Both the position numbers and the translations under genes were made by a program. 14,117 bases of DNA from Promethearchaeota archaeon (GTDB lineage: Archaea; Asgardarchaeota; Lokiarchaeia; Sigyniarchaeales; SOKP01), in contig JBHLNT010000106.1 of the NCBI GenBank assembly GCA_048941265.1, positions 1 through 14,117 of the forward strand. Direction: 5' to 3'. The notes beneath the pieces are model-generated. The model made no database searches. It was not told where the DNA came from and saw only the letters and a program-made list of their open reading frames with translations. How positions within the stretch are numbered: position 1 is the first letter of the stretch; each line of letters begins with the position of its first letter. Shown here piece by piece: positions 1 to 14,117 of the stretch.

Positions 1-248
1 AATACTTTCTATTAAAAATTTTAATTTTTGAGATTATCTTTCAAAAAATATGTGAGTTTTATAGTGTATAATTATTTTAAACCATTAGTTTCATATTTAT
101 CGACAAATCAGTCAAAGATTACAAATTAGTTGGGATATTTTTTTCACTACTTCTTAAATATATTATAAAAATGAAGTTAAAAAGCATAGATAAGTTTACT
201 ATAATCAATAAGACATTTGGAATTTAATTCATAATTTCTTGAAAAGAG

Positions 249-698
249 TTGTTTGAAATTAAAGAAAAGTTTGTTCCCATCCAAATTGATCAAAATCAAT
301 GTCTGCGCTGTGAGAGATGTTTAAGGGCATGTAAAGCTAAAGCAATTTATTTTGAGAATGGCATTCGGCTTGTGGATTATTCAAAATGTAAGGCTTGTTT
401 AAATTGTGTTCAGGTTTGTCCCAGAAACGCAGTTCAGGTGACATCTATACAGATTCCTAACCAAGTGTTATCCATTAAAATTGATCATAATAAATGTAAT
501 ATGTGTATGAAATGTGTCGAAGATAACGGTAAATTTTGCCCTAAAAATTTATTTTATGTGGATAAGGTTAAAAAAAACGGCGATGAAGTTGATGGAATTC
601 GATTTAAATTTAAGGAAATTGCCAAATGTCAAGGTTGCCTAAAATGTGAGTTAAGTTGTCCTCAAAATGCCCTTAAACCGGTAAAATTTGAGGATTAA
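249..698 (+). CDS. Polyferredoxin / 4Fe-4S binding protein (four clusters)
   Basis: Four ferredoxin motifs: CLRCERCLRAC, CKACLNCVQVCP, CNMCMKC-x7-CP, CQGCLKCELSCP. TTG start. Confidence 0.9.
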   Translation: MFEIKEKFVPIQIDQNQCLRCERCLRACKAKAIYFENGIRLVDYSKCKACLNCVQVCPRNAVQVTSIQIPNQVLSIKIDHNKCNMCMKCVEDNGKFCPKNLFYVDKVKKNGDEVDGIRFKFKEIAKCQGCLKCELSCPQNALKPVKFED

Positions 699-755
699 AG
701 ACAATTTTAAACCTAAATTTTTATTAAAACAAAATCAAGTAAATTCAAATTAAGT

Positions 756-1181
756 TCAATTAATTTTTAATGCGATAAGTACAACAGCTATTATTACTGT
801 AGTAATGAGATAAACAATAAACCACATTATGAATAAAATTATAACTATAAAGAGTACGAAGATCAATGACTGTTTAAGCTTTTTCTCATAAAATTTTGCA
901 GTACTAAGAGTACCAATCATTATATTAATTAAAAACGATAGTAATGCTGCAATAAATAAACCATAAACTACTTGTATCAAAATTATAAAGAGAATTAGAT
1001 TACAAACTAGCCAAAATAAATTTAAACGAATTGATGGTTTATAATTATCATTCCATTCTTCCTTTATTGCCCACCATCTTGTTATAATGATTCCAAGTAC
1101 AAAAACCACAAATGTAACGATTAAAATAGAATAAAGAGAGATAAAAAATCCCTGTGAAAGATTTTCTTCTAGAATAATCAT
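756..1181 (-). CDS. Hypothetical integral membrane protein (~4 TM)
   Basis: 141-aa ORF with long hydrophobic stretches. It fills the gap and converges on the polyferredoxin. No recognisable motif. Confidence 0.75.
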   Translation of the reverse strand: MIILEENLSQGFFISLYSILIVTFVVFVLGIIITRWWAIKEEWNDNYKPSIRLNLFWLVCNLILFIILIQVVYGLFIAALLSFLINIMIGTLSTAKFYEKKLKQSLIFVLFIVIILFIMWFIVYLITTVIIAVVLIALKIN

Positions 1182-1327
1182 AACAATCTATTCTATTTTA
1201 TCTTCCATTTGATTTTAAATTTAATATTTAAAAATGTTGAAGAACTCAGTTAACTTATTTTTATACGATATCTTTTAATGATTATATTAACATAATCGAG
1301 AGAATTAATTTTCATTAAGAAATAAAA

Positions 1328-2062
1328 GTGTATCAATTGATTAATAAAGAAAAACTCTTGAATGAAATTATAGCATGGGCTGTTATTGCTTTTTTAATTT
1401 CTTTTAGCTGTTTAATATTTTTTATTTATAAATCATCTGAAGAAATAATGTTTTCTATGAGAGTGGCTCTTTATTTTTTCAGACCTTACACTGTTCTCAC
1501 GCATGTAATTTTTCTTACAATCCTTGTAGAGGGATTAATTTTTAAAAGGGTAAATGATGAGTTGTATGCGGGAATTATGGCTTTTTTCGCGATTACGACA
1601 GCAATTATTGGTATAATTTTCATACTCATTCCAGAAATCATTTTCTTTACTCTTATATTTGTATTAACCATTAATGCTTATTTTAATAAGGAATTAACCT
1701 GGGATTTGAAAAAGACAGGCAAAATTTCACGGATTTTTGCAATTATTAGTTTTACTTTTGGTTTCTGGTATTTATTTTGGGTGGAGAGCCCTATTTGGGT
1801 AAATGCAATATTTCTCTCCCCTTTAGGAATTCTAAATAGCCCTACGTTACTAACAATCTGTGGTTTTCTTTGTATAAACAATGAACCAAGATCAAACAAA
1901 TTAGAGTTAGTTGTTGCGATAGTTTCTTTATGGATAGGAATAATAAACATCATAATATTTGGAATATATGTTGATATTGTGCTTCTTATCGTTGCCTTAT
2001 TTCTAATAATTCGCTTCGGCTATTATATCAGTAAGCAAAAAATAAATCAAAATCAAGTATAA
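1328..2062 (+). CDS. Hypothetical multi-pass membrane protein (possibly DUF6064-like)
   Basis: 244 aa, about 8 hydrophobic segments. SPLGILNSPTLLTICGFL loosely resembles the PCPTT motif of DUF6064-type proteins (recalled, unverified). Start (GTG) uncertain. Confidence 0.75.
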   Translation: MYQLINKEKLLNEIIAWAVIAFLISFSCLIFFIYKSSEEIMFSMRVALYFFRPYTVLTHVIFLTILVEGLIFKRVNDELYAGIMAFFAITTAIIGIIFILIPEIIFFTLIFVLTINAYFNKELTWDLKKTGKISRIFAIISFTFGFWYLFWVESPIWVNAIFLSPLGILNSPTLLTICGFLCINNEPRSNKLELVVAIVSLWIGIINIIIFGIYVDIVLLIVALFLIIRFGYYISKQKINQNQV

Positions 2063-2095
2063 AGTAAAAATCTATAACAATTATGGCTATAGTTT

Positions 2096-2659
2096 TTATG
2101 ATTTCTCCTTTATTTTATCGAGAATTAATTTTTTTATATCTGAAAAACTCTTAATCACATAAATACCTTCCATTTTCTTTAGTTTTTCTATATTTTCTAT
2201 TTCAATATCTCTAATTTTTAGAACTAATGGATCTCCATTAGGTCTGGAAGTAACAATTGGTTCAAAATCTTGGTCAGAAGGAAAGATATATACTGTTACT
2301 CCACCCTTTATTGCTTGTGCCACACTATTGGTTATTAAGGTGTCAGCTATTCCATAAACTATTTTTGCACAGGAATTCGCAGAAACTGGACAACATATAA
2401 ACATATCGTATTTGCCGATTTGAAGTGCTCCGGCAAAGAAAGGAATGTTAGGAGTTTTTTCAATATGAACCTTTTTCACTGTTTCTGTTAAATAAGTCCA
2501 TTGCTTATACCACTTTACTACGGCAGCACCTTCTTTTGAAAGCATAACGGTGATACTTATCTTTTCCCCAAATTCATCCTGTAATTCTTTCATTATGTCA
2601 ATTATTTCCTTAATCATATATCCAGTACCCGTCATACCAATCATTAATTTAAAAACCAT
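2096..2659 (-). CDS. afpA: Archaeal flavoprotein, AfpA / dihydromethanopterin-reductase-like (HFCD flavoprotein fold)
   Basis: GMTGTG FMN loop, PVSANSCAKIVYGIADTLITNSVAQAIKG and IFPSD signatures of the AfpA/DmrX family. GAGGA SD before the ATG. Confidence 0.8.
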   Translation of the reverse strand: MVFKLMIGMTGTGYMIKEIIDIMKELQDEFGEKISITVMLSKEGAAVVKWYKQWTYLTETVKKVHIEKTPNIPFFAGALQIGKYDMFICCPVSANSCAKIVYGIADTLITNSVAQAIKGGVTVYIFPSDQDFEPIVTSRPNGDPLVLKIRDIEIENIEKLKKMEGIYVIKSFSDIKKLILDKIKEKS

Positions 2660-2837
2660 TTTTAATCCTCTTTTTTTACTGTTAAGCTCTTTATAAATTA
2701 GAAAATTGGATAATAGATTTTCACATTTCTTTTAAATTATTAATTCCAATAATTCTTAAATTAAGTAATTGAAGGGTTATTTTAAAAAATATGATTTTCT
2801 TAATTATACATCAAGAAATATTTCTTTGGTTTTTTTA

Positions 2838-4076
2838 ATGAGTGAAAAAAAATATGTTTATTTAGATTATGCGGCTACAACTCCAATGGATCCTCGTGTA
2901 ATTGAAGAAATCAATAAACATTTTAGAGAAACGTATGGAAATTCTTCAAGCCTTCATTCATTTGGTCAAAAAGCGGGCAAATTATTAGAGCAATCACGCC
3001 AAACTATAGCAGATCTCATTAATGCCGACAGACAAGATATTATATTTACATCATCAGGAACGGAAGCAGACAATATGGCCATTACGGGAGTAGCCCTCCA
3101 AAATATGGATCGGGGGAATCATATCATAACATCGGCGATTGAGCATCATGCGATTGAAAATCCGTGTAGAGAATGGGATAATAGAGGTTTAGAAGTTACC
3201 TTTCTTCCTGTTGATAAATATGGTCTAATAAAATTAGAGGATTTACAAAATGCCATAACCGATAAGACTATTTTAATTAGTATCATGTTTGCAAACAATG
3301 AGATCGGAACGATTGAGCCGATAAAAGAGATCGGGGCGATTGCGCAAGAGCATAATATAATATTCCATACTGATGCTGTTCAAGCATTTGGTAAAGTTCC
3401 AATAGATGTCGAAGAGTTGAATATTGATTTATTATCGGCAAGCGCTCATAAAATATACGGTCCTAAAGGAATAGGACTTTTATATATGAGGAATAAAGGG
3501 ATCAAAAAGGGAATCGGAAAGTTCATAAGACCGATAATGTGGGGTGGTGGTCATGAAAAGGACATGCGTCCAAGTACTGTGGCAGTTCCCCTAATCGCGG
3601 GATTTGCCAAAGCCGTGGAAATTGCTAAAGAAGAAATGGTTGAAGAAGCAAAGCGCCAAGTTAAATTACGGGATAAAATCATTAACAGGGTTTTAGAAAA
3701 TATAGAAGATGTTTTTTTAAATGGTCATCCTACGCAACGTCTACCTAATAATGTAAATATAAGCTTCAAATATATAGAGGGAGAGTCTATAGTTCTAGAT
3801 TTGGATATGGAAGGGATCGGGGTGTCTACAGGTTCAGCATGCTCTTCAAAATCTTTAGAACCGTCTCATGTCTTGTTGGCAATCGGGCTGAGACCTGAAG
3901 AAGCACATGGTTCTTTGAGAGCTACTATAGGGAGATTTACGACTGAAGATGATATTGAGTATTTTTTAGAGAAATTGCCTCATGTCATTGAAAGATTAAG
4001 GAAAATGTCTCCTTTGAAAAAAGGAGTAAAATATATGTTTGATGATGCCCGTGAGAATGATCATCATCATGAGTAA
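2838..4076 (+). CDS. iscS: Cysteine desulfurase, group I (IscS/NifS)
   Basis: YLDYAATTP, FTSSGTEADN, HTDAVQA, SAHKIYGPKG (PLP lysine), STGSACSS (catalytic Cys). Start moved from TTG 2769 to ATG 2838 (MSEKKYVYLDY) to match the family N-terminus. Confidence 0.96.
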   Translation: MSEKKYVYLDYAATTPMDPRVIEEINKHFRETYGNSSSLHSFGQKAGKLLEQSRQTIADLINADRQDIIFTSSGTEADNMAITGVALQNMDRGNHIITSAIEHHAIENPCREWDNRGLEVTFLPVDKYGLIKLEDLQNAITDKTILISIMFANNEIGTIEPIKEIGAIAQEHNIIFHTDAVQAFGKVPIDVEELNIDLLSASAHKIYGPKGIGLLYMRNKGIKKGIGKFIRPIMWGGGHEKDMRPSTVAVPLIAGFAKAVEIAKEEMVEEAKRQVKLRDKIINRVLENIEDVFLNGHPTQRLPNNVNISFKYIEGESIVLDLDMEGIGVSTGSACSSKSLEPSHVLLAIGLRPEEAHGSLRATIGRFTTEDDIEYFLEKLPHVIERLRKMSPLKKGVKYMFDDARENDHHHE

Positions 4077-4110
4077 GATTTTTAGTATATTTAATAGTTA
4101 GAATATATCT

Positions 4111-4156
4111 AATAATGGTAAACGGTAAAGATATATAAATAAGTTTTACCATTATT
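4111..4156. promoter_or_regulatory. 12-bp perfect inverted repeat flanking a BRE/TATA-like element
   Basis: AATAATGGTAAA (4111-4122) and TTTACCATTATT (4145-4156) enclose AAAGATATATAAA, upstream of the ORF at 4197. Confidence 0.5.
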
Positions 4157-4196
4157 CAATTAAATTCTTGAACTATAGTTCGTTTGATACACTCTA

Positions 4197-5132
4197 ATGC
4201 TTAGGGAAGACGAGATTTTCAGGGAAAATTACGTAAAGATAAGATTAACATGCCCTAGATGTAAAAAGGAGAAATTTTTAAAAATTCCTACGGAATTAAC
4301 TAAACATAGCGAACATCTAACGACCATTTCGATTCCCTCTGATTTCGTTTGTAAACACAGTTTTCAAGCGTTTATAGATAAAGATTTTAATGTAAGGGCG
4401 TATCAAAATGCTGATTTTGAAATTACTAAAATTGAATTCTATGAAAGTGAACAGAAAGATAAGGAAGGTATAATTACTTACATTTTATCACAATTAATTA
4501 AAAATATAGTTGAAATACTACGTGAATCGTTAGTAGATAAACAGATTTTAGGGGGAGCAATATTTGATTTAGAGGGAAAAGTCATGTATTCTTCATTGCC
4601 GGATGAAATTTTTCTAGTTATGGTAAGCCAACTAGAGAATTTGCAAAAAAAGCAATCAATTCAAATAAAACAAACAATACTTCTGCTAGAAAATAGCGAA
4701 AAAATCTATTCTAAAATAATTCAACTTAAAGAAATTAGTTTAAATCTTGTATTATATATGTCTTCTGAACTTGATTTAAATGAAGCTGATAGTTATTTGG
4801 AAAATTTAATCGCAAAAATTAATGAATTAGAGAAACCTAAACAAAAATTAATCAAAGAAGATATAAAAATACAACAAACACCAAGTCAATATTGGATTTT
4901 TTCCAAAGTTAACTATACCTCCTCGCTCCAAGATGGTGATACGGTCTATATTGATTCTTTAGGTATAAGTGTTTCAAAATCTGTTATACTTAACCTTGAA
5001 GAAATTAAAAATAATCAAAAATTTGAGGGCAAAATTTATTTTACGCAAAAATATGTCAACCTAATGCAAGGATTAGCGTTAACTCTTAAAGATGCAGCAA
5101 TTTTTATGAGTAAATTAAATAAAATGTCTTGA
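4197..5132 (+). CDS. Lokiarchaeal-type protein: N-terminal CPxC...CxH zinc-binding module plus Roadblock/longin-like domain
   Basis: CPRCKKEKFLKIP...LTTISIP...CKHSFQAFIDKDFNVRAYQ followed by ILGGAIFDLEGKVMYSSLP, a Roadblock/MglB-like pattern. Domain assignment is by eye. Confidence 0.75.
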   Translation: MLREDEIFRENYVKIRLTCPRCKKEKFLKIPTELTKHSEHLTTISIPSDFVCKHSFQAFIDKDFNVRAYQNADFEITKIEFYESEQKDKEGIITYILSQLIKNIVEILRESLVDKQILGGAIFDLEGKVMYSSLPDEIFLVMVSQLENLQKKQSIQIKQTILLLENSEKIYSKIIQLKEISLNLVLYMSSELDLNEADSYLENLIAKINELEKPKQKLIKEDIKIQQTPSQYWIFSKVNYTSSLQDGDTVYIDSLGISVSKSVILNLEEIKNNQKFEGKIYFTQKYVNLMQGLALTLKDAAIFMSKLNKMS

Positions 5133-5145
5133 GCAGCAAAAAAAA

Positions 5146-5346
5146 TTAAATTTTTACAGAAATTCTTTGTTTGAATTTTACATAATCACATATCTTGCTC
5201 ACAGTTCTCACAGGACGGTCCCAGAATTGAAATAATATACCTTCACATTCTTTAATCTTTTTTGACCAAGAGCTAGAATAATTTTCGGGATTAATACAGA
5301 TTATTGGAATTGATAATCTTTTGGATAATTTTAAGGTAGGTCTGAT
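5146..5346 (-). CDS. Putative small protein (~66 aa) without a canonical start codon
   Basis: Stop-free frame of 77 codons (5379 to TAA at 5148-5146) fills the intergenic gap. GAGGA lies 7 nt before ATC at 5346. Not in the ORF track. Confidence 0.45.
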   Translation of the reverse strand: MRPTLKLSKRLSIPIICINPENYSSSWSKKIKECEGILFQFWDRPVRTVSKICDYVKFKQRISVKI

Positions 5347-5459
5347 TAAAATATCCTCAAGTTTAATTATGTAATTAACTTAATTTTTTTTTAAAGTTTG
5401 AAGGATTGATTTTCGGAAAAATCGTAAGAATTTTTTGTTACGCAAATTTGTATTAATTA

Positions 5460-7913
5460 ATGATTAACGAGGAATTTAAATTTTCAGATAAATCGATTTT
5501 AATAGAAGAATTGGCGAAATTAGGATCTTCTTTTAAAATTAAGTCCTATAATCAAAAACTAAAACTAATGGAAGATCAAAAAATTCCTCAAAAAGATATG
5601 AAAGAAGTATTAAATCACTTTTTTTCTAATGAAAATAAGATAATAAATCCCAAAACAAAAAATTCCATAAAAAAGATATTGTTTTCTCAAAAAGATCGTA
5701 TAATTATTGCGATAACTAACTCCGGAAGGGAAATTATTTGGAATCGAGATAAATTAATTAAAAAGTATGGTTGGTTTTTTTTTGTTTCTGAATCCGAAAA
5801 ACGTTTCATAGAAAAAAAATCCAAAAAATCTAAGAACTTTGAAAAAAAGGCAAAAAAAGAAGAGAAAACAATTAAAACAGAAGAATACAACTTCGATGAT
5901 ACTACTATTATTCTAAAGCAAAAAGAAAATATGCGACCTTTGTATAAGACAAAAGAATACTTTAAGTATTTTAAAAATATTAAATCAAAAAGAATTCCAC
6001 AGATGCCAATTAAAAAAGTATTAGATGATTTTTTTCTAAAAAATGAAGATATACCATTAAAAGAAAAAAAAACTATAGCTAAAATAATTTACTATACTGA
6101 AGATAAGGTTATTGTTGTTAAATCTTTAATCGGAGATAAAATGTATGAGAATCTGGATAAATTAGTAGATCATTACGGTTGGTATTTCTATATTACAGGC
6201 GTACCAGTGGGTAAAAGTGAAATTTCTATAGCTATAGATAAAATTGACAGAAAATTTGATGAAACTTTTTTTAAAGAGAAATCTCTTAAGGACGGAATAG
6301 AAAATGGGGAGAAGATTAGAGTAAGCCTTTATCCAGTTGCTTTAAAACCTAATCATAATTCATTAATTTTAGGTTTGGGAAAATTAAATATTTTATTAGA
6401 CTGCGGGATTACTGAAGAATATTTTGAATATATTGAAGATTATCAAAATAATTTTAACCAGCTAATAGCGGATAGTAGAGACACTAGAAAAATAATTACA
6501 GAATGGGGAAGTAAAGAAGGAAAATCTACAGACACTCAAAATACCCAAGAATCTGAAAATACTGAAAAAGTTGAATCTACAGAAGAAATCTTGTCTGAGA
6601 TTGAGAAAGAAGATGAGATTATTAAAAGTAAAGAAACTCAGGAGTTGTATATTCCTGAGGAAAAGAAATTATCATATATCCCAAAAATCGATGCTATATT
6701 TATATCCCACAGCCATTTTGATCATATTTCAGGTTTAAAAGATTTTATTAAACTAAATCCTGAGGTCCCAATTTTATGTTCAAGAATTACTTTGGATTTA
6801 TATTTGTTAAGAGATTCAGAATATTTAAAGCAGGAAAATCGGGAAGAAATCCAAGATCAAGAATATGTAAATATCGTTAAAAATGTAATATATGTTGAAA
6901 ACGGAGATAAGATTGAATTTGAAGAAAAAGGGTGTTATTTATCGTTCTACCATGCCGGACACATGCCAGGGGCCTTAATGATGTTAGCAAAAGTGCAAGA
7001 TTTTCGATTTTTATTTACAGGAGATTATACTTATTATGATATAACGCCATTTGCTGGTACCAGAAGATTTTTAGAACAAATTTCTCGTCCAATTGATTTT
7101 TTACTAATAGATGCTTCAAGCGCCCAAGAAGATTTCGGAAATCTATCAGATCAGTTTCATAGTTTAATCTTATTCTTAGAACAAAAAGCGGAATATGGAG
7201 ATAATTGTCTTATTGGTGCTGATCCATCAAGCTTAGCAATTACCTTTATGTTAATATTCTGGAGATACTTCAGAAAATTACAACTCAGAAAGGGCTTCAA
7301 GAAGAGACCTAATATTTATGTGGATCAGATGGTTCGAAAAAATATTCAAGTTATTAATCATAGATATGAATATATTTATGGTCCTATTTCTCGCTTAATC
7401 AGAGATAAAGCAAATCCATTTAATTCCATTAAATTTCGATGGTTTGACATTAGTGATTTAGATTTCTTACGAAAGAAAAATAATATCATTATATCACATC
7501 CACCGGATCTCTCATACGGGATTATTAGAAATATTATTAATGTGATAGGAAGAAACCCGCATAATTTAGTATTTCTTTCAGGTGCGATTCATGAAGACCC
7601 CGCATCAAGCTTGATTAATCCTCCTGAGTCAGATGAAAAAGCAGAAATGAAAGAGATTATCTTTTCTGATACATGGAAAATGCCTTTTCGAGCATTATTA
7701 ATAAATACCTTCGCACCTCAAATAAAAATAAAACTTCATGGGGATCGGACACAATTACGAGAAATGATTAAAAGTCTTGAACCAAAGGAAGTGTGCTTTT
7801 TTCATCAATCACCAAAAGCCCTGATTGATGTCGCAAGGGAAGTAGATCTCTCTTTTGATTTTGTTGATAAAGTATCAGTGCCACATAAGAGAAATCTCAT
7901 GATATTGAATTAA
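5460..7913 (+). CDS. Metallo-beta-lactamase / beta-CASP family nuclease (aCPSF-related) with duplicated N-terminal domain
   Basis: Motif 1 ILLDCG, motif 2 HSHFDH, motif 3 AGHMPG, motif 4 FTGDY, and beta-CASP motifs A (LIDAS), B (KLHGD), C (FFHQ). Confidence 0.85.
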   Translation: MINEEFKFSDKSILIEELAKLGSSFKIKSYNQKLKLMEDQKIPQKDMKEVLNHFFSNENKIINPKTKNSIKKILFSQKDRIIIAITNSGREIIWNRDKLIKKYGWFFFVSESEKRFIEKKSKKSKNFEKKAKKEEKTIKTEEYNFDDTTIILKQKENMRPLYKTKEYFKYFKNIKSKRIPQMPIKKVLDDFFLKNEDIPLKEKKTIAKIIYYTEDKVIVVKSLIGDKMYENLDKLVDHYGWYFYITGVPVGKSEISIAIDKIDRKFDETFFKEKSLKDGIENGEKIRVSLYPVALKPNHNSLILGLGKLNILLDCGITEEYFEYIEDYQNNFNQLIADSRDTRKIITEWGSKEGKSTDTQNTQESENTEKVESTEEILSEIEKEDEIIKSKETQELYIPEEKKLSYIPKIDAIFISHSHFDHISGLKDFIKLNPEVPILCSRITLDLYLLRDSEYLKQENREEIQDQEYVNIVKNVIYVENGDKIEFEEKGCYLSFYHAGHMPGALMMLAKVQDFRFLFTGDYTYYDITPFAGTRRFLEQISRPIDFLLIDASSAQEDFGNLSDQFHSLILFLEQKAEYGDNCLIGADPSSLAITFMLIFWRYFRKLQLRKGFKKRPNIYVDQMVRKNIQVINHRYEYIYGPISRLIRDKANPFNSIKFRWFDISDLDFLRKKNNIIISHPPDLSYGIIRNIINVIGRNPHNLVFLSGAIHEDPASSLINPPESDEKAEMKEIIFSDTWKMPFRALLINTFAPQIKIKLHGDRTQLREMIKSLEPKEVCFFHQSPKALIDVAREVDLSFDFVDKVSVPHKRNLMILN
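5469..6194 (+). repeat. Protein-level tandem duplication (aa 4-109 and aa 141-245)
   Basis: EEFKFSD/EEYNFDD, FKIKSY/YKTKEY and KIPQKDMKEVLNHFF/RIPQMPIKKVLDDFF align at a constant 137-aa offset. The units end in DKLIKKYGWFFFV/DKLVDHYGWYFYI. Confidence 0.85.
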
Positions 7914-7959
7914 ACTTATTCATAATCTCTAATAATACATTAAATATAGCATTATAAGA

Positions 7960-9834
7960 TTATGTTATTAAACCAAATTCCTTAAGTTTTATTTCTACAT
8001 CCATTAAATTAAGTTTTCTTAGTGTTTCTAGCATCGGTACTCCATTTTCATTCCAACCAATGCTATTATAGTATGCAAACCTTTTCTCTTCAAACTTTGT
8101 ACGATTTAATGTTTTTCCTTTATATGGTCCCGAGGTCAATGGTTCCCAGAACTTTGGGGGATTATCATCATCTTCTTTAGGTTTCCATCGAACGTCCGGT
8201 CCACCTAAAAGTAACATAGCTCTTTGGAGGTGAAGAATTCTTTGTGCTTTTTGGTTGAACCATTCCTCTTCTGATAGCTCCCATCCTGTTACTGCTTTAT
8301 AAAAGTTAAATATTGACTTGAATTGTAATAACATTGCGTTAAAAGCACAAAATACCGCAGAATCGGCCATTATCGTTGATAATTCACCATGTCCGCCATC
8401 AATCGGGAGAATGGCGGGTGAACCGTGATCTCCAGCCTGGACCGAGCAAGCATAGCCTATGTGATTAGAGATCATATCTTGTCCGCTCCTAATTCCATGA
8501 GCTCCAATGGCTATACCTTTTTCGTGAACGACATACTTAAGGAGATCAGTTTTTTTCACTTCTCCGATCTTTAATGCTGCTCGATAAATACCCTCTGCTA
8601 AAATATCTCCAATATCTCTTCTAGAGGCTATCTTCTCTGCTAAAGATACAAAAGCATCTGTATCTCCCCATTTTGGTGATATTCCATTTAAATCACTCTC
8701 TGTAAGAATTCTTTTTTCAAATAATTCTGCTGTTAATCCTAAAATTGCTCCACCTTGAATCGCGCACATTCCAAGTTCTTCAATAATATATGATAGATAA
8801 ATATTTTCTTCAGGAGTGAAAATTCCTAGATTAGTACCTAAATATGCTTGAAGCTCGTAATCGGGATTATCGCAAATTGCTCCTTTAAACTTTCCGGTTT
8901 TCAGAACTGAAAGCTTAAGACATGTTAATGGGCAACCATAATCACCCCAATTTTTTTTTACCCAGTATTTATCAAATTCTTCACCAGTATAGCTTTTATT
9001 ATCATGCCATTCTTCCTGCCAATTTCTAATAGGTTCAGAACTAGTCGTATTTCCAAACATATAACACCCTTGTCCTGTTCCCCAGCGTCTAAAAAATCTA
9101 TTTTGAAAATTCCTTTTTGAAATTTTTTCAATTAAATACAGAGTTTTTTCGCTATCGGCGATCTCTGGCAGTGGACCAAAACCTTTAACAACTATCGCCT
9201 TAAGGTTCTTAGAGCCCATTACTCCACCATATCCTCCATATCCTGCAGCATGTGAATATTTAGAGCACACAACTGCAACTCTTGTCCTATTTTCTCCAGC
9301 CGGTCCTATATAAAGAATTGAGGGCTCTTTTATTTGTCCATATTTAGGTCGAGCTTCTCTAAGTTCATCGTTTGATTTCTTTACAAGATAACGTACGGTT
9401 TTTCTAGCTGTTTTTCCCCAAATTGATGAGGCATCTTTAATCTCAACATTATCATCGGATAGAAATAAATAACATGGCTTTTCTGATTTGTTAATAAAAA
9501 TTAGACCATCATATCCAGCACATTTTAAGTCAATTCCAACTTCACCTGAAATGGTTGAGCCCACTATCCCATTACTTTGGGGTGATTTCCCAGAAATACA
9601 AATTCTTGCTCCGGGAAAAAATCCCGTCAATGGTCCAGTAAGTACGAGTAATAGGTTTTCTATTCCTAATGGATCCACGGTTTCCCATGTCTTACCAAGT
9701 CTATCCCATAATATCTTTGTGGCTAAACCCCTCCCCCCAATATAATCCCTTAAAATTTTATCAGGAAATTTTATTTCTTTTATTTGTTTATTAGATAGAT
9801 CTATCTCCAAGAATTTACCAGTATAACCGTTCAT
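7960..9834 (-). CDS. aor: Tungsten-containing aldehyde:ferredoxin oxidoreductase family, large subunit (WOR5-like)
   Basis: YIGGRGLA, KSPQSNG, IGPAGEN, GGVMGSKNLKA, DYGCPLTC, PDYE, DSAVFC, YYNSIGWNENGVP. ATGA overlap with the upstream Fe-S gene. Confidence 0.93.
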   Translation of the reverse strand: MNGYTGKFLEIDLSNKQIKEIKFPDKILRDYIGGRGLATKILWDRLGKTWETVDPLGIENLLLVLTGPLTGFFPGARICISGKSPQSNGIVGSTISGEVGIDLKCAGYDGLIFINKSEKPCYLFLSDDNVEIKDASSIWGKTARKTVRYLVKKSNDELREARPKYGQIKEPSILYIGPAGENRTRVAVVCSKYSHAAGYGGYGGVMGSKNLKAIVVKGFGPLPEIADSEKTLYLIEKISKRNFQNRFFRRWGTGQGCYMFGNTTSSEPIRNWQEEWHDNKSYTGEEFDKYWVKKNWGDYGCPLTCLKLSVLKTGKFKGAICDNPDYELQAYLGTNLGIFTPEENIYLSYIIEELGMCAIQGGAILGLTAELFEKRILTESDLNGISPKWGDTDAFVSLAEKIASRRDIGDILAEGIYRAALKIGEVKKTDLLKYVVHEKGIAIGAHGIRSGQDMISNHIGYACSVQAGDHGSPAILPIDGGHGELSTIMADSAVFCAFNAMLLQFKSIFNFYKAVTGWELSEEEWFNQKAQRILHLQRAMLLLGGPDVRWKPKEDDDNPPKFWEPLTSGPYKGKTLNRTKFEEKRFAYYNSIGWNENGVPMLETLRKLNLMDVEIKLKEFGLIT

Positions 9835-10367
9835 GGGCTTAACACCTCCTTTGTAATCTCTTCTCCTAGAATTTGTTTAGCAACATTAATAGTGAGTTCT
9901 TTAGGTTTTTTCGCCATACTGCCGCGATTAACACTCTTTGATTTTTGAATAACGGTTAATGCATTCCATCTGCCCTTTTGACAAGCCTTCGCGCATAAAG
10001 GTGTCCCGTTACACAAATCACATATTACGATGCAATCTTTCCCCGGATGGAGGTGTGGTATATCTCCAGGGCAAGCATCTATACACATCCCGCATGATAT
10101 ACATTTTGATTCGTCTACAATTACCGCACCAGTTTTATCATTTATTGTTAGAGCCTCCTCGGGGCAGGCTTCAACACAAGGATAATCTTCACATTGAAAA
10201 CAAAGATGAGGAATCTCGACTCCCGGAACAAGCATGAAGATTCGGATTCTTGATGCTTCGGGCCAAATTTTACCCTCATGAGAGATAGAACACGCAATTT
10301 CGCATCTTCTGCATCCACTGCAGGTTTCATAATTGCGTTTTATCCATATTTGTTCATCCTGACTAAT
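9831..10367 (-). CDS. 4x[4Fe-4S] electron-transfer small subunit of the oxidoreductase (DmsB/HydN-type); proposed ATT start
   Basis: The ORF-track call (ATG 10235) lacks the first cluster motif. The same frame continues upstream as ISQDEQIWIKRNYETCSGCRRCEIACSISHEGKIWPEASRIRIF, which completes four 4-Cys groups. No in-frame ATG/GTG/TTG occurs before the upstream TAG. Confidence 0.9.
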   Translation of the reverse strand: MSQDEQIWIKRNYETCSGCRRCEIACSISHEGKIWPEASRIRIFMLVPGVEIPHLCFQCEDYPCVEACPEEALTINDKTGAVIVDESKCISCGMCIDACPGDIPHLHPGKDCIVICDLCNGTPLCAKACQKGRWNALTVIQKSKSVNRGSMAKKPKELTINVAKQILGEEITKEVLSP

Positions 10368-10427
10368 CTTGGATCGCTTCTTTTTGATCTAATTTTACAA
10401 TCTGACATAAGAAAACAAAAAATTCTT

Positions 10428-10445
10428 ATATCGGAATTGCGATAT
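10428..10445. promoter_or_regulatory. Palindromic operator, site 1 (candidate PadR site)
   Basis: ATATCG-GAATTG-CGATAT, in the divergent region between the aor operon and padR. Confidence 0.65.
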
Positions 10446-10465
10446 TTTTTAATAATTAGAACTCT

Positions 10466-10473
10466 TATTTAAA
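10466..10473 (-). promoter_or_regulatory. Candidate TATA box for the Fe-S/aor operon
   Basis: TTTAAATA on the minus strand, lying between the two palindromes. Confidence 0.45.
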
Positions 10474-10474
10474 G

Positions 10475-10492
10475 ATATTGGTTAACCGATAT
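10475..10492. promoter_or_regulatory. Palindromic operator, site 2 (candidate PadR site)
   Basis: ATATTGGTTAACCGATAT, one mismatch from a perfect 18-bp palindrome and the same consensus as site 1. Confidence 0.65.
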
Positions 10493-10533
10493 TATTCATA
10501 AAAAGTTAATATAATATATCTAAAGGAAGATAC

Positions 10534-10836
10534 ATGACTTACCACAAAATGAAAGGACTCCTCTCTTTTCTAATACTATGGGTAATTAAAAATAGAAAGA
10601 TGACTGGAGTGGAAATAACCACAGAACTCGAAAAAAGAAAAGGTAGAAAACTAAGTCCTGGTACAATATATCCTGTGTTAAAAAAACTTAAAAAAGATGG
10701 ATTGCTTGAAATGGATGAAAACAAATGTTATGCTCTCACAGAATTAGGGATTAAAGAATTGAAGTATCGATTAGGAATTTTTCTAAAAACTTTTCCTGAT
10801 ATTGAGGATATGAGAGATTTTATAAAAAAAAATTAA
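10534..10836 (+). CDS. PadR-family transcriptional regulator
   Basis: MKGLLSFLILWVI...TGVEI...LSPGTIYPVLKKLKKDGLL...YALTELG is the classic short PadR winged helix. Confidence 0.92.
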   Translation: MTYHKMKGLLSFLILWVIKNRKMTGVEITTELEKRKGRKLSPGTIYPVLKKLKKDGLLEMDENKCYALTELGIKELKYRLGIFLKTFPDIEDMRDFIKKN

Positions 10837-10890
10837 AAAAAAAGTATAAAATTAAATTGACCTCAATGCTGTCCTAATTTTAAATTATCT

Positions 10891-11616
10891 TTATTTTAAG
10901 AACATTCTCTTTATCCAATTTGGTAAAACGAATGCTCCGTAAAATAATATCGCACTTAAGATCAAAATAAGCCTGAAAATTATTAAAGTTAAAGCAGTAG
11001 TAGGAATTGACGCATCTAAGAAACCACCGATACAAAACAATGGAAAAGCAATCAAAAGCAGCTTTCCCTTTAATTTTGTTTCGGAATCGTTTATTTTCAT
11101 AGTCTCTAATGCAAATTTAACACCTGTAACGAAGAAAATTACGATAAATATCACTAAAAGTACTGCTAAAACATAACTTCTGGCAGCTGTATCAACTGGA
11201 CTAATCTTCTCCGCTATAAGGTTTGGATTTGTAAATATAAAATAGAAAAAGACTGTGTAAAAAATAATGACATAAATTACATTTCCCAGAAGAAAAATAA
11301 ATTGTTTATCTTTTAGCAAGAAATTAGAAAACGCAATAGCCCATAAAATGAGAGCTATGGGTAATGGAATAAAGTTCAAAAGCAAAATCATTTCAAGAGA
11401 AAGACCATCTCCTCCCGTGAACAAGGCCACTAGGAAAGATGCGCTAGTTCCATACCATCCGCTAATTAAAAATATCCACGTGAATCCTACTAATAGGAAA
11501 TTTTTATCCTTAGTTTTAAAATATTTTAATACAATAATAATCCCTAAAATAATAGAAATTACGACAAATAAGAGCCCAAAAGTGCCGTTAACAATATCTA
11601 AAGGTTCTAATGACAT
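10891..11616 (-). CDS. 7-TM membrane protein of a family expanded in Lokiarchaeia
   Basis: Seven hydrophobic segments, ending LFYGAFVLPNWIKRMF. Start moved to ATG 11616 (MSLEPLD), which follows AAAGGAGA. Confidence 0.8.
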   Translation of the reverse strand: MSLEPLDIVNGTFGLLFVVISIILGIIIVLKYFKTKDKNFLLVGFTWIFLISGWYGTSASFLVALFTGGDGLSLEMILLLNFIPLPIALILWAIAFSNFLLKDKQFIFLLGNVIYVIIFYTVFFYFIFTNPNLIAEKISPVDTAARSYVLAVLLVIFIVIFFVTGVKFALETMKINDSETKLKGKLLLIAFPLFCIGGFLDASIPTTALTLIIFRLILILSAILFYGAFVLPNWIKRMFLK

Positions 11617-11819
11617 AGGTAATATTTCTCCTTTAAAATTTATTAAGATTATTTTATTTATAAAAATCCTTAGCATTAATTCTTTATCAATTCTTGGTTT
11701 TTAGTAAATTATTCCAAAAAACTATGATTAAGAAATTTTATGACCTATAAGCATTAAATTTTAAATCGTTTTATCTCATTTTATATATTATAGAAAGAAT
11801 AATTTTAAGGTGTTCAAGA

Positions 11820-12182
11820 ATTTATACTGACAAAGTATTGGAACATTTTAAGAATCCACGAAATATGGGAGAAATGGAAGATGCAGATGCCGTAGGAGAG
11901 TATGGAAATCCTGTATGTGGAGATTTGATGTATATTTATATAAAAGTTAAAGATGATAAAATTGATGATATTTCTTTCCAAACATTTGGATGTGCAGCTG
12001 CTATTGCTACATCAAGCATGGTAACCGAGTTGGCAAAAGGAAAAACATTAGATGAGGCAATGAACATTACTAGAAATGATGTTGCTGACGCTTTAGACGG
12101 TCTTCCACCAATTAAACTACATTGTAGTAATTTAGCTGCCGATGCTTTACATGAAGCTATAAAGAAATATCGTCAAAAATAA
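11820..12182 (+). CDS. iscU: Fe-S cluster scaffold IscU/NifU; proposed ATT start
   Basis: HFKNPRNMG, GNPVCGD, FQTFGCAAAIATSS, LPPIKLHCSNLA. The conserved N-terminus YTDKVLEHF lies upstream of the track's TTG 11838. ATT 11820 occupies the Met position, 7 nt after AAGGTG. Confidence 0.95.
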   Translation: MYTDKVLEHFKNPRNMGEMEDADAVGEYGNPVCGDLMYIYIKVKDDKIDDISFQTFGCAAAIATSSMVTELAKGKTLDEAMNITRNDVADALDGLPPIKLHCSNLAADALHEAIKKYRQK

Positions 12183-12268
12183 CTTATTTAAATTCTTTTA
12201 TTCAATATTAATTGAATAACGTCATCTTAAATAAAAAGTATCCACACTGTAAGCATATAAAAAGCCTC

Positions 12269-12718
12269 TTAATGTTTTTCAAAAGAGTTTTTAAAAGCTT
12301 TTGCACAATGTTTACAGCAAAAATTCATCTCCTTCCCCTCAATTACTTCAGTGTGATAATTATCATATAATTTTACTCCACAACTAGCACAGATTTTTAA
12401 TTTTGATTCTACCGCCGCTTCAATTAAATTATTAAATCTTGAAAATATCCTGTCAATAAATTCATCACCCGTAGAAGTTAATCTAATTCCTTTCACACGA
12501 CCTGTGTTTTTTTTTTGAATATCTTCAATGTATCCACTTTCTTTGAGGGTTTTTAAAAAATCATAAATGCTTGTTGGACTTGCTGTTGTGCCTAGATCCT
12601 CTTTTAGACGATTAATAATTTTATATCCCGTTAATCTATTTTTAGATTTTAGTAATAATAAGATATAGAATCTTGTTATACTTTGAATTTTTATATCTTG
12701 AGTTTCAGTCATTTTCAA
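12269..12718 (-). CDS. PadR-type winged-helix regulator with C-terminal TRASH metal-binding domain (probable copper regulator)
   Basis: FYILLLL...LTGYKII...SPTSIYDFLKTLKESGYI...LTSTG, then CASCG-x15-FCCKHC. Divergent from copA. Start is TTG 12718 or ATG 12712. Confidence 0.88.
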   Translation of the reverse strand: MKMTETQDIKIQSITRFYILLLLKSKNRLTGYKIINRLKEDLGTTASPTSIYDFLKTLKESGYIEDIQKKNTGRVKGIRLTSTGDEFIDRIFSRFNNLIEAAVESKLKICASCGVKLYDNYHTEVIEGKEMNFCCKHCAKAFKNSFEKH

Positions 12719-12790
12719 CTCTCACTGTTTAAAATATGAAACTTTTGTTTATTAAAAATTTCGTATATATTTCATAATAGTCATATTTAA

Positions 12791-12812
12791 ATATATACTG
12801 ATTAGTATATAT
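12791..12812. promoter_or_regulatory. Palindromic operator overlapping a TATA-like box of the cop genes
   Basis: ATATATACT-GATT-AGTATATAT (perfect 9-bp arms) overlaps TTTAAATA at 12786-12793. Confidence 0.6.
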
Positions 12813-12888
12813 CATAAGATAATAAATTTTAAAAAATCAAATAAAAACTAAAAAAAACCTATTAAAAATTAGGAGCTGAGTTGATTTT

Positions 12889-13212
12889 ATGTTATTGGAT
12901 GAGATGCATGGAGAAGAAAATCATATGATGGATTGGATGTCTAGAGGACAAGTAGATTGGATATTTATATTAGCAGGATGGATTATATTTCTTATGTTTG
13001 TGGTCATACTTTTATACATGCTTAACAGAGGATCAAAGAATTTTGCGAATAATAATGATTTGCGGAACCAACCTAATCAAGATCTCTCATTGGGCGTTAA
13101 AATTGATAAAACGCAACATGATCGTTCCATTTTTTGTCCTAATTGCGGAGAAAAAATAGATGGTAAAACACCTAAATATTGTCCAAGATGTGGGAACAAA
13201 ATTTGGACCTAA
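12889..13212 (+). CDS. Small membrane protein: His/Met-rich N-terminus, one TM helix, C-terminal zinc ribbon
   Basis: MHGEENHMMDWM; hydrophobic WIFILAGWIIFLMFVVILLYML; CPNCG...CPRCG. Confidence 0.82.
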   Translation: MLLDEMHGEENHMMDWMSRGQVDWIFILAGWIIFLMFVVILLYMLNRGSKNFANNNDLRNQPNQDLSLGVKIDKTQHDRSIFCPNCGEKIDGKTPKYCPRCGNKIWT

Positions 13213-13358
13213 TAACGCTGAATTATAAAATAAATAGAATATTTACTCTTTTTTTTAGTTTTTAATTATGAATTACTACAAATGTTTACAATTTATAAAC
13301 AAAATATAGAAAAATTAAAACAAAAATTAATAATATGAAGAAAAAGAAGTGATCTGAT

Positions 13359-14117
13359 ATGGATGATATTTCTGATGAGAAAGTTAAAATTAAACTTGGT
13401 GGGATGACATGTGCTTCATGTGCATTAAAAATTGAAACTAAACTGAAAAACATGGAAGGAGTTAGAAGTTCACTTGTAAATTTTGCTAACGAAGAGGCAA
13501 CGGTTGAATATAACCCAAAACGGACCAATTATTATGAGTTTGATAAAGCAATAAAGGATCTAGGATATAAAGCTTCACTTGCTAAAATTGATTTAAAAAT
13601 AGTTGACTCACTTTCTGAAGAAGAATTTGATACTCTTACTAAAAAGATTAAAGAAATATCGGGAATCTACAATGTACGAGGTAATTATAAGGCAGCAAAA
13701 TTATTTATTGAATTCAATGAGCTTCAAATAGATGAAAATAAAGTTTATACTTCAGTGAAAAATCTAGGGTATAAAATAGAAAAAGCAGCTGGTGTAGTTG
13801 ATAAGGAAATTGAACAACATAAGAAAGAAATGAAATATCGCTTAAGAATTCTTATAATATCTTTAATCTTTGCTGCAATTATCGCTCCTGTAAATTGGCT
13901 TGTTCCTCCTTCATTTACTCGTAATTTATTTTTGACAATATTAGCAACCGGGAATTATATTATAGCAGGTTCCTTTTTCTTCGAGGGTGCTTATAAATCC
14001 TTAAAAAATAAATCTGCAAATATGGATGTTTTAATCATACTAGGAACTACAACTGCTTATGTATATTCGTTTTTGACGACTTTTTTTATATCAGGAGAAG
14101 TTTTCTATGAGGCAATG
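13359..14117 (+). CDS. copA: Heavy-metal P1B-type ATPase CopA, 5' part (truncated by window edge)
   Basis: Hand translation gives 253 open codons: MDDISDEKVKIKLGGMTCASCALKIE (HMA), a second HMA-like fold, TM segments, then GAYKSLKNKSANMDVLIILGTTTAYVYS and FYEA. SD-like AAGTGATC before the ATG. Absent from the ORF track because there is no stop in the window. Confidence 0.93.
   Translation, partial: MDDISDEKVKIKLGGMTCASCALKIETKLKNMEGVRSSLVNFANEEATVEYNPKRTNYYEFDKAIKDLGYKASLAKIDLKIVDSLSEEEFDTLTKKIKEISGIYNVRGNYKAAKLFIEFNELQIDENKVYTSVKNLGYKIEKAAGVVDKEIEQHKKEMKYRLRILIISLIFAAIIAPVNWLVPPSFTRNLFLTILATGNYIIAGSFFFEGAYKSLKNKSANMDVLIILGTTTAYVYSFLTTFFISGEVFYEAM

Follow-up and report, generated by a model that had tools for sequence, protein, structure and literature searches.

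In bacteria, AUU start codons are very rare and serve the autoregulation of IF3, whose gene in Escherichia coli (infC) has the classic AUU start, led by a Shine-Dalgarno (SD) sequence, read by initiator tRNA, and conserved among relatives. AUU starts as such are already known from this gene and from mitochondria. Mammalian mitochondria are described as using AUA and AUU as start codons (PMC11775629). Profiling of Haloferax volcanii placed ~30% of putative alternative initiation sites at near-cognate codons, which indicates that archaeal ribosomes can engage such codons; these sites were set aside by the authors of that report as possible false positives and were not the main starts of conserved genes (PMC7261190). 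For an Asgard tubulin gene, atubA, a “rare ATT start codon” has been inferred, with the upstream ATT restoring the conserved N terminus and a likely ribosome-binding site at a plausible distance (PMC13394414; Sci Adv 2026). The Pyrococcus WOR5-type enzyme is described as an alpha2beta2 enzyme, the 18-kDa beta subunit of which carries four Fe4S4 clusters (PMC12096430). Here, a homologue of that subunit is described from a 14,117-nucleotide stretch (the window; contig JBHLNT010000106.1, positions 1 to 14,117) of a draft metagenome-assembled genome (MAG) of a Promethearchaeota archaeon (GCA_048941265.1; 5.0 Mb, 30.5% G+C; G000). Names given to the closest proteins (Promethearchaeota, Lokiarchaeota, and Lokiarchaeia) put this genome among the Asgard archaea. 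By sequence similarity, the gene (9831..10367, minus strand) encodes the small subunit, a four-cluster polyferredoxin, of a tungsten oxidoreductase of the WOR5 type, and its translation very probably begins by genuine SD-led initiation at an AUU codon (ATT at 10367).

In its protein product, the locus resembles the Pyrococcus furiosus WOR5/ASOR beta subunit (6x6u_B and 6x1o_B), with a full-length match and four groups of four Cys residues; its novelty lies in the start codon and not in the protein. Like infC, the gene has an SD-led AUU start that is conserved among relatives, but it encodes an Fe-S protein rather than a start-codon fidelity factor and so falls outside the infC-type class. The likeness to mitochondria lies in the use of third-position variants of AUG as regular starts, whereas mitochondrial mRNAs are leaderless and AUA there encodes Met; in the present genome, the putative starts are SD led, and within coding sequences ATA and ATT encode Ile as usual. 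The atubA start, as reported, concerned a single gene in a heimdallarchaeial MAG and was inferred from structure prediction (PMC13394414). Unlike that case, the ATT of the Fe-S gene is conserved between diverged relatives and followed by coding-type substitutions, and dozens of genes in the genome show putative ATT or ATA starts. Full-text literature searches (supplements aside) yielded no systematic account of such starts for Asgard archaea, only the remark on atubA.

On the minus strand, the frame of the Fe-S gene reads TAG (10391-10389) ATC AAA AAG AAG CGA TCC AAG ATT (10367-10365) AGT CAG GAT GAA CAA ATA TGG, with the in-frame TAG (10389..10391) closing the frame upstream and the ATT (10365..10367) as the proposed initiation codon. 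The initial annotation had held that no ATG, GTG, or TTG precedes position 10235 in this frame and that a Cys motif lies before the ATG found there. Both observations were confirmed on the minus strand: the frame contains no such codon between the TAG and the ATG at 10235, and the motif CSGCRRCEIAC (10290..10322, minus strand) is encoded upstream of this first canonical start. The internal ATG (10233..10235, minus strand; Met45) is the start used by gene callers and gives a 134-amino-acid ORF (9831..10235), the only one that the standard ORF list contains for this gene. The full coding sequence comprises 178 amino acids (product P0001) and a stop codon (TGA, 9833-9831). The expectation that standard gene callers truncate the gene was borne out by the public protein collection, in which the gene is present only as the truncated 134-amino-acid form (P0004). 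The 90%-identity cluster P0120 has nine members from several sources, of which eight are 134-amino-acid calls from the same internal Met, and the ninth, of 155 amino acids, starts inside the first Cys group.

The 178-amino-acid translation contains 16 Cys residues in four groups of four, the ligands for four [4Fe-4S] clusters, with the first group formed by Cys16, Cys19, Cys22, and Cys26. All four groups were invariant or nearly so across 24 aligned sequences, and the first was nearly invariant among full-length homologues. The protein matched PDB entry 6x6u_B (“Oxidoreductase, Fe-S subunit”) with an E value of 2.7e-59, with query residues 4 to 170 aligned to residues 6 to 172 of a 173-residue chain. 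Pfam assigned it to Fer4 families with 4Fe-4S dicluster domains, and NCBIfam assigned it to HydN/DmsB/NrfC-type four-cluster proteins, the alignments starting at profile positions 8 to 10, near residue 12 or 13. The claim that this family needs its first Cys group is supported by the homologues, which keep it, and by the solved WOR5 small subunit, in which the N-terminal group is present (6x6u_B match). Without that group, the 134-amino-acid form lacks 4 of the 16 conserved Cys ligands.

Starts of homologous loci were compared in a 74-row table comprising the window, 72 of 80 metagenome loci, and 1 of 19 related-genome loci (L002 to L020); the other 8 metagenome loci and the other 18 loci of L002 to L020, which had no match to the N-terminal motif, were left out, and L001 duplicates the window. 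In the alignment, the initiator Met of homologues 177 to 178 amino acids long stands opposite the ATT of the window (MSQYDQVWIKR against ISQDEQIWIKR). Seven codon positions before a conserved Trp, 53 rows have ATG, 10 have TTG, and 2 have ATT; in 8 of the 9 others, a canonical start lies elsewhere close by. An alignment of homologous loci had been proposed as a check on whether others have ATG where the window has ATT, and ATG (53/74) or TTG (10/74) was found at exactly that place. Only 3 of the 74 rows had no canonical start anywhere from the in-frame stop to the Trp, namely, the window and metagenome loci L021 and L042. In a maximum-likelihood tree, the window and L021 formed a supported pair (100/99), and L042 stood apart, among sequences with a TTG start two codons further upstream. 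The L042 locus (2960-3400, plus strand) lies on a metagenome contig of 47% G+C and contains the same Fe-S gene, lacking any canonical start, with GGAGGA followed after 9 bases by an ATT one codon nearer to the Trp than that of the window; a WOR5-type gene (67% identity) lies downstream. L042 is probably a second, separate case, although the well-supported branches do not force two origins.

L021, an independent metagenome contig of 29% G+C, reads TAA AAG AAG TGG TCC AAG ATT AGT CAG at the corresponding place. L021 keeps the ATT, has an in-frame TAA five codons before it, and has no canonical start. Over the 44 codons from the ATT to the internal Met, the window and L021 differed at 11 codons, all by synonymous third-position changes, with no gaps. 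The next 99 codons contained 24 synonymous and 14 nonsynonymous differences, and the 60 alignment columns upstream of the ATT contained 12 substitutions and 2 single-base gaps. Because change is exclusively synonymous downstream of the ATT and includes substitutions and gaps upstream, coding constraint begins at or just before the ATT, which contradicts both a sequencing error and a dead start. The second of these, an ATG-to-ATT mutation by which the start was lost, leaving a decaying gene with either no product or only the 134-amino-acid product from Met45, would be in keeping with the canonical ATG of the truncated ORF and with its being the form reported by annotation pipelines. It is nevertheless very unlikely: if the 44 “orphan” codons were unconstrained in position, the probability that all 11 changes would fall on third positions would be about (1/3)^11, both the ATT and the SD register are conserved in L021, the short form misses the four ligands noted above, and the predicted SD duplex before the ATG at 10235 is only -4.6 kcal/mol.

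A base-call or assembly error, either hiding a true ATG or taking the form of an indel that would link the frame to an upstream ATG, was considered against assembled public data, the genome being a metagenome-assembled draft. The locus was listed for 12 public runs, none of them RNA, and Logan contigs of four of these runs were compared with the window, with 40 of 241 differences shown. A contig of run X1, which may be the source sample, spans 10245-10450 with 0 differences, and a contig of run X5, from a different study, spans 10237-10396 with 1 difference, the place of which was not shown. None of the 40 of 241 differences shown fell at 10365-10367. These contigs of two studies thus covered the ATT with 0 and 1 differences when the suggested check for a base error was made, and no indel joining the frame to an upstream ATG was seen in them. 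One X1 contig (depth, 11.8) lacked one base at 10386, in an A run between the in-frame TAG and the SD-like stretch; this deletion represents strain variation in the leader, does not affect the ATT frame, and creates no upstream start. The missing base, upstream of the ATT, could be counted in favor of an error, but it does not bring the ATG at 10408 into frame. Joining that ATG, which is out of frame with the gene, would take another indel, and L021 has no such ATG. It opens a 22-codon out-of-frame ORF (10340-10408, minus strand) that runs to a TAA at 10342-10340 and spans the SD-like stretch and the ATT; since its ATG is absent from L021, this ORF is probably not functional. Together with the same ATT amid many other differences in the independent L021 contig and with eight separately recorded relatives of 134 amino acids, these data make an error of this kind extremely improbable.

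The SD context of the ATT was evaluated against the 16S rRNA of the same genome. With the Rfam small-subunit rRNA model, no 16S gene was found in G000; a ~65-base 3' fragment at a contig end was located by motif. The end of this contig (C222) carries the last bases of the 16S gene (...GGATCACCTCCT, also given as ...CTGCGGCTGGATCACCTCCT), and because this tail belongs to the same genome, GAGGTGATCC can be taken as the organism's own SD complement. The bases GAAGCGATCC (10380-10371) match GAGGTGATCC at 8 of 10 positions. Extended by one base, the SD-like stretch AGAAGCGATCC (10371..10381, minus strand) has 8 of 11 matches to GGAGGTGATCC and lies 3 bases (AAG) before the ATT. When the distance between the start codon and the first G of GGAGGTGATCC was expressed as D, the first canonical starts in G000 peaked at D=14 (ATG, 78; TTG, 27; GTG, 9), and the arrangement AGAAGCGATCC-AAG-ATT of the window stands at D=14, in the same register as the SD-led ATG, TTG, and GTG mode. 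L021 has AGAAGTGGTCC in this register. SD words were enriched 3- to 4.7-fold upstream of presumed starts in G000; SD sequences are stated to be not prevalent in Lokiarchaea in PMC12993045 and PMC7531240. The SD argument of the initial annotation, based on its 8/10 match, also stands when judged by the 16S tail and the start-site statistics of G000 itself.

Predicted duplex energies were -9.4 kcal/mol for the ATT of the window, -12.7 kcal/mol for L021, and -10.7 kcal/mol for L042, values to be read with the observation that 18-base duplex energies barely separate presumed starts from internal controls (8.3% versus 6.5% at ≤-8 kcal/mol). These contexts also bear on initiation at a downstream ATA, at 10349 or 10343, the two codons flanking the conserved Trp, which would yield a protein 6 to 8 residues shorter with all four Cys groups retained. 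ATA behaves like a start codon at other places in G000, both ATA codons are conserved in L021, and some homologues start two residues before the Trp (MLWIKRNY..). Measured from the SD origin, however, the ATA codons stand at 32 and 38 bases, beyond the D=12-16 peak, and the predicted duplex before them is weak, at -4.6 kcal/mol compared with -9.4 kcal/mol before the ATT. Moreover, the SQDE between the ATT and the Trp resembles the N termini of distant homologues that start with ATG (MSQDERVW in L036, L045, and L058). A start at either ATA is accordingly improbable, and initiation at the ATT is preferred.

The use of ATT and ATA as starts was examined across G000 in ORF heads that lack ATG, GTG, and TTG between the upstream stop and the 15th codon beyond the codon under test and in which at least 100 further codons follow, with distance-resolved and same-phase distances as controls. 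Exact SD 5-mers at D=14 in such startless heads were found 20 times before ATT and 18 times before ATA, and same-phase distances gave 1 to 5 (means of 2.5 for ATT and 2.75 for ATA; Poisson P = 3e-12 and 9e-10, respectively). AAT, TTA, TAT, AAA, and TTT were preceded by such 5-mers at D=14 in 2 to 4 cases each. A phase artifact, arising from the TGA of GGTGA being in frame at D=14, was ruled out, given that the same-phase distances yielded only 1 to 5. With a threshold of at least 7 of 11 matches at D=14, hits were obtained for 15 of 917 ATT, 9 of 671 ATA, and 42 of 2,758 ATG codons and for 29 of 11,279 other codons pooled; ATT and ATA both resembled ATG and exceeded the pooled codons (P = 3.6e-7 and 2e-4, respectively). 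The second-position variants ACG, AAG, and AGG gave 0 hits at this threshold, CTG gave 2 of 61, and ATC gave 2 of 258. At least 8 of 11 matches at D=14 were found for 2 of 11,279 control codons, 7 of 2,758 ATG codons, and 3 of 917 ATT codons in comparable ORF heads, and the ATT of the window is one of these three.

The 38 cases with ATT (20) or ATA (18) are unrelated genes. Pfam was applied to 20 of them, and in 11, a domain begins (profile position 1 to 4) inside the startless head: uS10, a short-chain dehydrogenase, an SMP-30/gluconolactonase, a GPN-type ATP_bind_1 protein, an alpha/beta hydrolase, two Ras-family GTPases, a hexapeptide protein, a polyprenyl synthetase, a CoiA nuclease, and an HeH/Ish1 domain protein. 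For the other 9 of these 20 candidates, Pfam was uninformative. The number of ATT and ATA genes is a lower bound, covering cases that are SD led and otherwise startless. This recurrence also bears on a further explanation of the Fe-S gene, by which translation would initiate at an out-of-frame ATG at 10357, the first codon of a 5-codon ORF, and pass into the main frame by a programmed -1 frameshift. L021 carries the same ATG with an identical short ORF. The sequence shows no slippery heptamer, residues 2 to 7 of the ATT frame match homologues, and a frameshift is unneeded given the genome-wide ATT and ATA starts; such a route is hardly credible.

Two other types of startless ORFs were observed in G000. 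A flavodoxin-like ORF on contig C321 (plus strand; script index 16841-16916, 0 based; ..KIALFYFSGTGNTE..) has no canonical start and contains GGTG, 6 bases, and then CTG, which would give MKIALFYF; this CTG is a possible CUG start. Two paralogous ORFs (GINIA.I.D...) on contigs C350 and C47 (minus strand; reverse-complement indices 12804 and 2950, respectively, 0 based) have long, coding-looking heads directly after a stop codon and lack a start, and these heads could reflect read-through, a selenocysteine UGA, or split genes.

Three genes were followed into related genomes, and the claim for the family as a whole rests on these three because G000 is the only genome that was analyzed whole. The gene for ribosomal protein uS10 (G000:C161:7764-8069, plus strand; locus L101/L111) starts at ATA in G000 (GGTGATataagATA, MQKARIRL..), and 28 of 30 loci (relatives L112 to L140) could be parsed. 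In 9 of the 28 loci, ATA directly precedes QKARIRL, GGTGA(T) lies upstream, and there is no canonical alternative; one of the nine is in G000, six are in further genomes of the same genus, and two come from different genera. Among the other loci, 9 had ATG, 6 had GTG, and 2 had TTG; one was ambiguous, and the locus of genome G016 had TCG. In this G016 locus (L129; contig C7), no ATG, GTG, TTG, or AUH codon lies at a sensible distance from the upstream GGTGAG. Among uS10 protein entries, 38 of 120 listed relatives are 76 to 96 amino acids long instead of 101, and the 94-amino-acid forms start at Leu8.

All 30 loci of the GPN-loop GTPase gene (G000:C277:4574-5350, minus strand; locus L105/L141; relatives L142 to L170) were parsed. 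In the 25 loci of the family to which the window belongs, the start was ATT with GAGGT at D=14 in 16, ATA in 1, ATG in 7, and TTG in 1, and in 2 of these 16 ATT loci, a TTG in frame also lies close by. The GPN start was ATG in 5 of 5 loci of a sister family.

Of 41 genomes, 35 contain the gene for aIF1 (SUI1), G000 among them (G000:C112:9700-9912, minus strand; locus L198), and 29 of 30 rows were parsed (relatives L171 to L200). In the window's family, 16 of 18 loci lack ATG, GTG, and TTG alike from the in-frame stop to the zinc-knuckle Cys. Nine bases past a conserved GTGA, 14 of the 18 have ATT, 3 have ATC, and 1 (G016) has a different codon; an in-frame GTG is present in the aIF1 genes of G013 (where that codon is ATT) and G016. 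The sister family had TTG (5), GTG (2), ATG (1), and ATA (2). The putative ATT or ATC start of aIF1 resembles the AUU of bacterial infC and, by analogy, suggests feedback. Taken together, the distributions of start codons among relatives are best read as a sign that, in the course of evolution in the window's family, AUU and AUA could replace, and be replaced by, AUG, GUG, and UUG. On this comparative basis, the Fe-S gene looks like one case of lineage-wide ATT and ATA starts that standard gene callers miss.

Several points weigh against an AUU start of the Fe-S gene. The SD-like stretch has two internal mismatches in its GGAGG-T core, and for this reason its longest perfect SD run is GATCC. 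The orthologue comparison draws on the DNA of one close relative, L021; the first 10 codons after the ATT are nearly alike in the two sequences (9 identical and 1 synonymous) and therefore carry little codon-level signal of their own, and the ATA codons at 10349 and 10343 are conserved in L021 as well. G000 is a MAG with 91% completeness and 4.8% contamination, and the support for the start, obtained on this draft genome, is wholly comparative and statistical. From the literature, aIF1 of Saccharolobus and Pyrococcus is described as discriminating against non-AUG codons (PMC6237735), and archaea are described in a review as using AUG, GUG, and UUG (PMC7531240). Set against these points, the positions of canonical starts in homologues, the pattern of substitutions, and the SD register continue to argue for translation from the ATT, giving MSQDEQIW... 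(178 amino acids), as the initial annotation had proposed.

The Fe-S gene is followed by that of the 624-amino-acid catalytic subunit of a WOR5-type tungsten oxidoreductase (7960..9834, minus strand; Pfam AFOR_N and AFOR_C), which matched PDB entry 6x1o_A (“Formaldehyde:ferredoxin oxidoreductase wor5”) over residues 2 to 618 with an E value of 2.6e-215. The two genes are co-oriented, and the ATG of the catalytic subunit overlaps the TGA of the Fe-S gene as ATGA. The pairing of an Fe-S gene with a WOR5-type gene recurs at L042 and L002. A divergent gene on the other side (10534..10836, plus strand) encodes a PadR-family regulator of 100 amino acids (Pfam PadR, E = 8.9e-14); it was not found on L021, the contig of which ends inside the Fe-S gene. 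Between the Fe-S and PadR genes, a block conserved with L021 in a gapped alignment (10424..10476, minus strand) holds two A/T-rich TATA-like boxes (TTTAAATAAGA and CCGATATAAGA), and the shared block reads TTTAAATAAGA.TTCTA..TATTAAAAAATA and AATTCCGATATAAGA. This block is a candidate promoter or operator. A bacterial-type promoter scan returned 6 sites against 5.1 expected and was uninformative.

The proposed initiation would proceed as follows. In the leader of the mRNA, AGAAGCGAUCC would base-pair with the 16S rRNA at its 3' tail, and this pairing would place AUU in the P site at the spacing used for SD-led AUG, UUG, and GUG starts. Initiator Met-tRNA would then read AUU with a third-position mismatch to give MSQDEQIW..., and the gene for the catalytic subunit would be translationally coupled through the ATGA overlap. 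Three elements of this scheme are presumed: decoding by the initiator tRNA with Met as first residue, an aIF1 proofreading set in this lineage to accept AUU and AUA, and the degree of efficiency of the AUU start. In the draft G000, aragorn predicted 10 tRNAs (27 with introns allowed), none of them Met, and motif searches detected no initiator-like tRNA. A broader proposal is advanced tentatively: AUU, AUA, and probably AUC may be regular SD-led starts in this Lokiarchaeia-like family, in dozens of genes per genome that include those for uS10 and aIF1. Since aIF1 rejects non-AUG codons, its own AUU start would give infC-like negative feedback, and the AUU and AUA genes, the WOR5 operon among them, might constitute an aIF1-tuned regulon.

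If AUU and AUA are starts of this kind, N-terminal truncation would be systematic in the public proteomes of Asgard archaea. The public record of the Fe-S protein is short by a quarter of its length and by one of four cluster-binding motifs, and the same truncation extends to relatives, in 8 of 9 members of cluster P0120 and in 38 of 120 listed uS10 entries. The conservation of AUU and AUA as the main starts of essential genes would, in addition, bear on the evolution of start-codon stringency.

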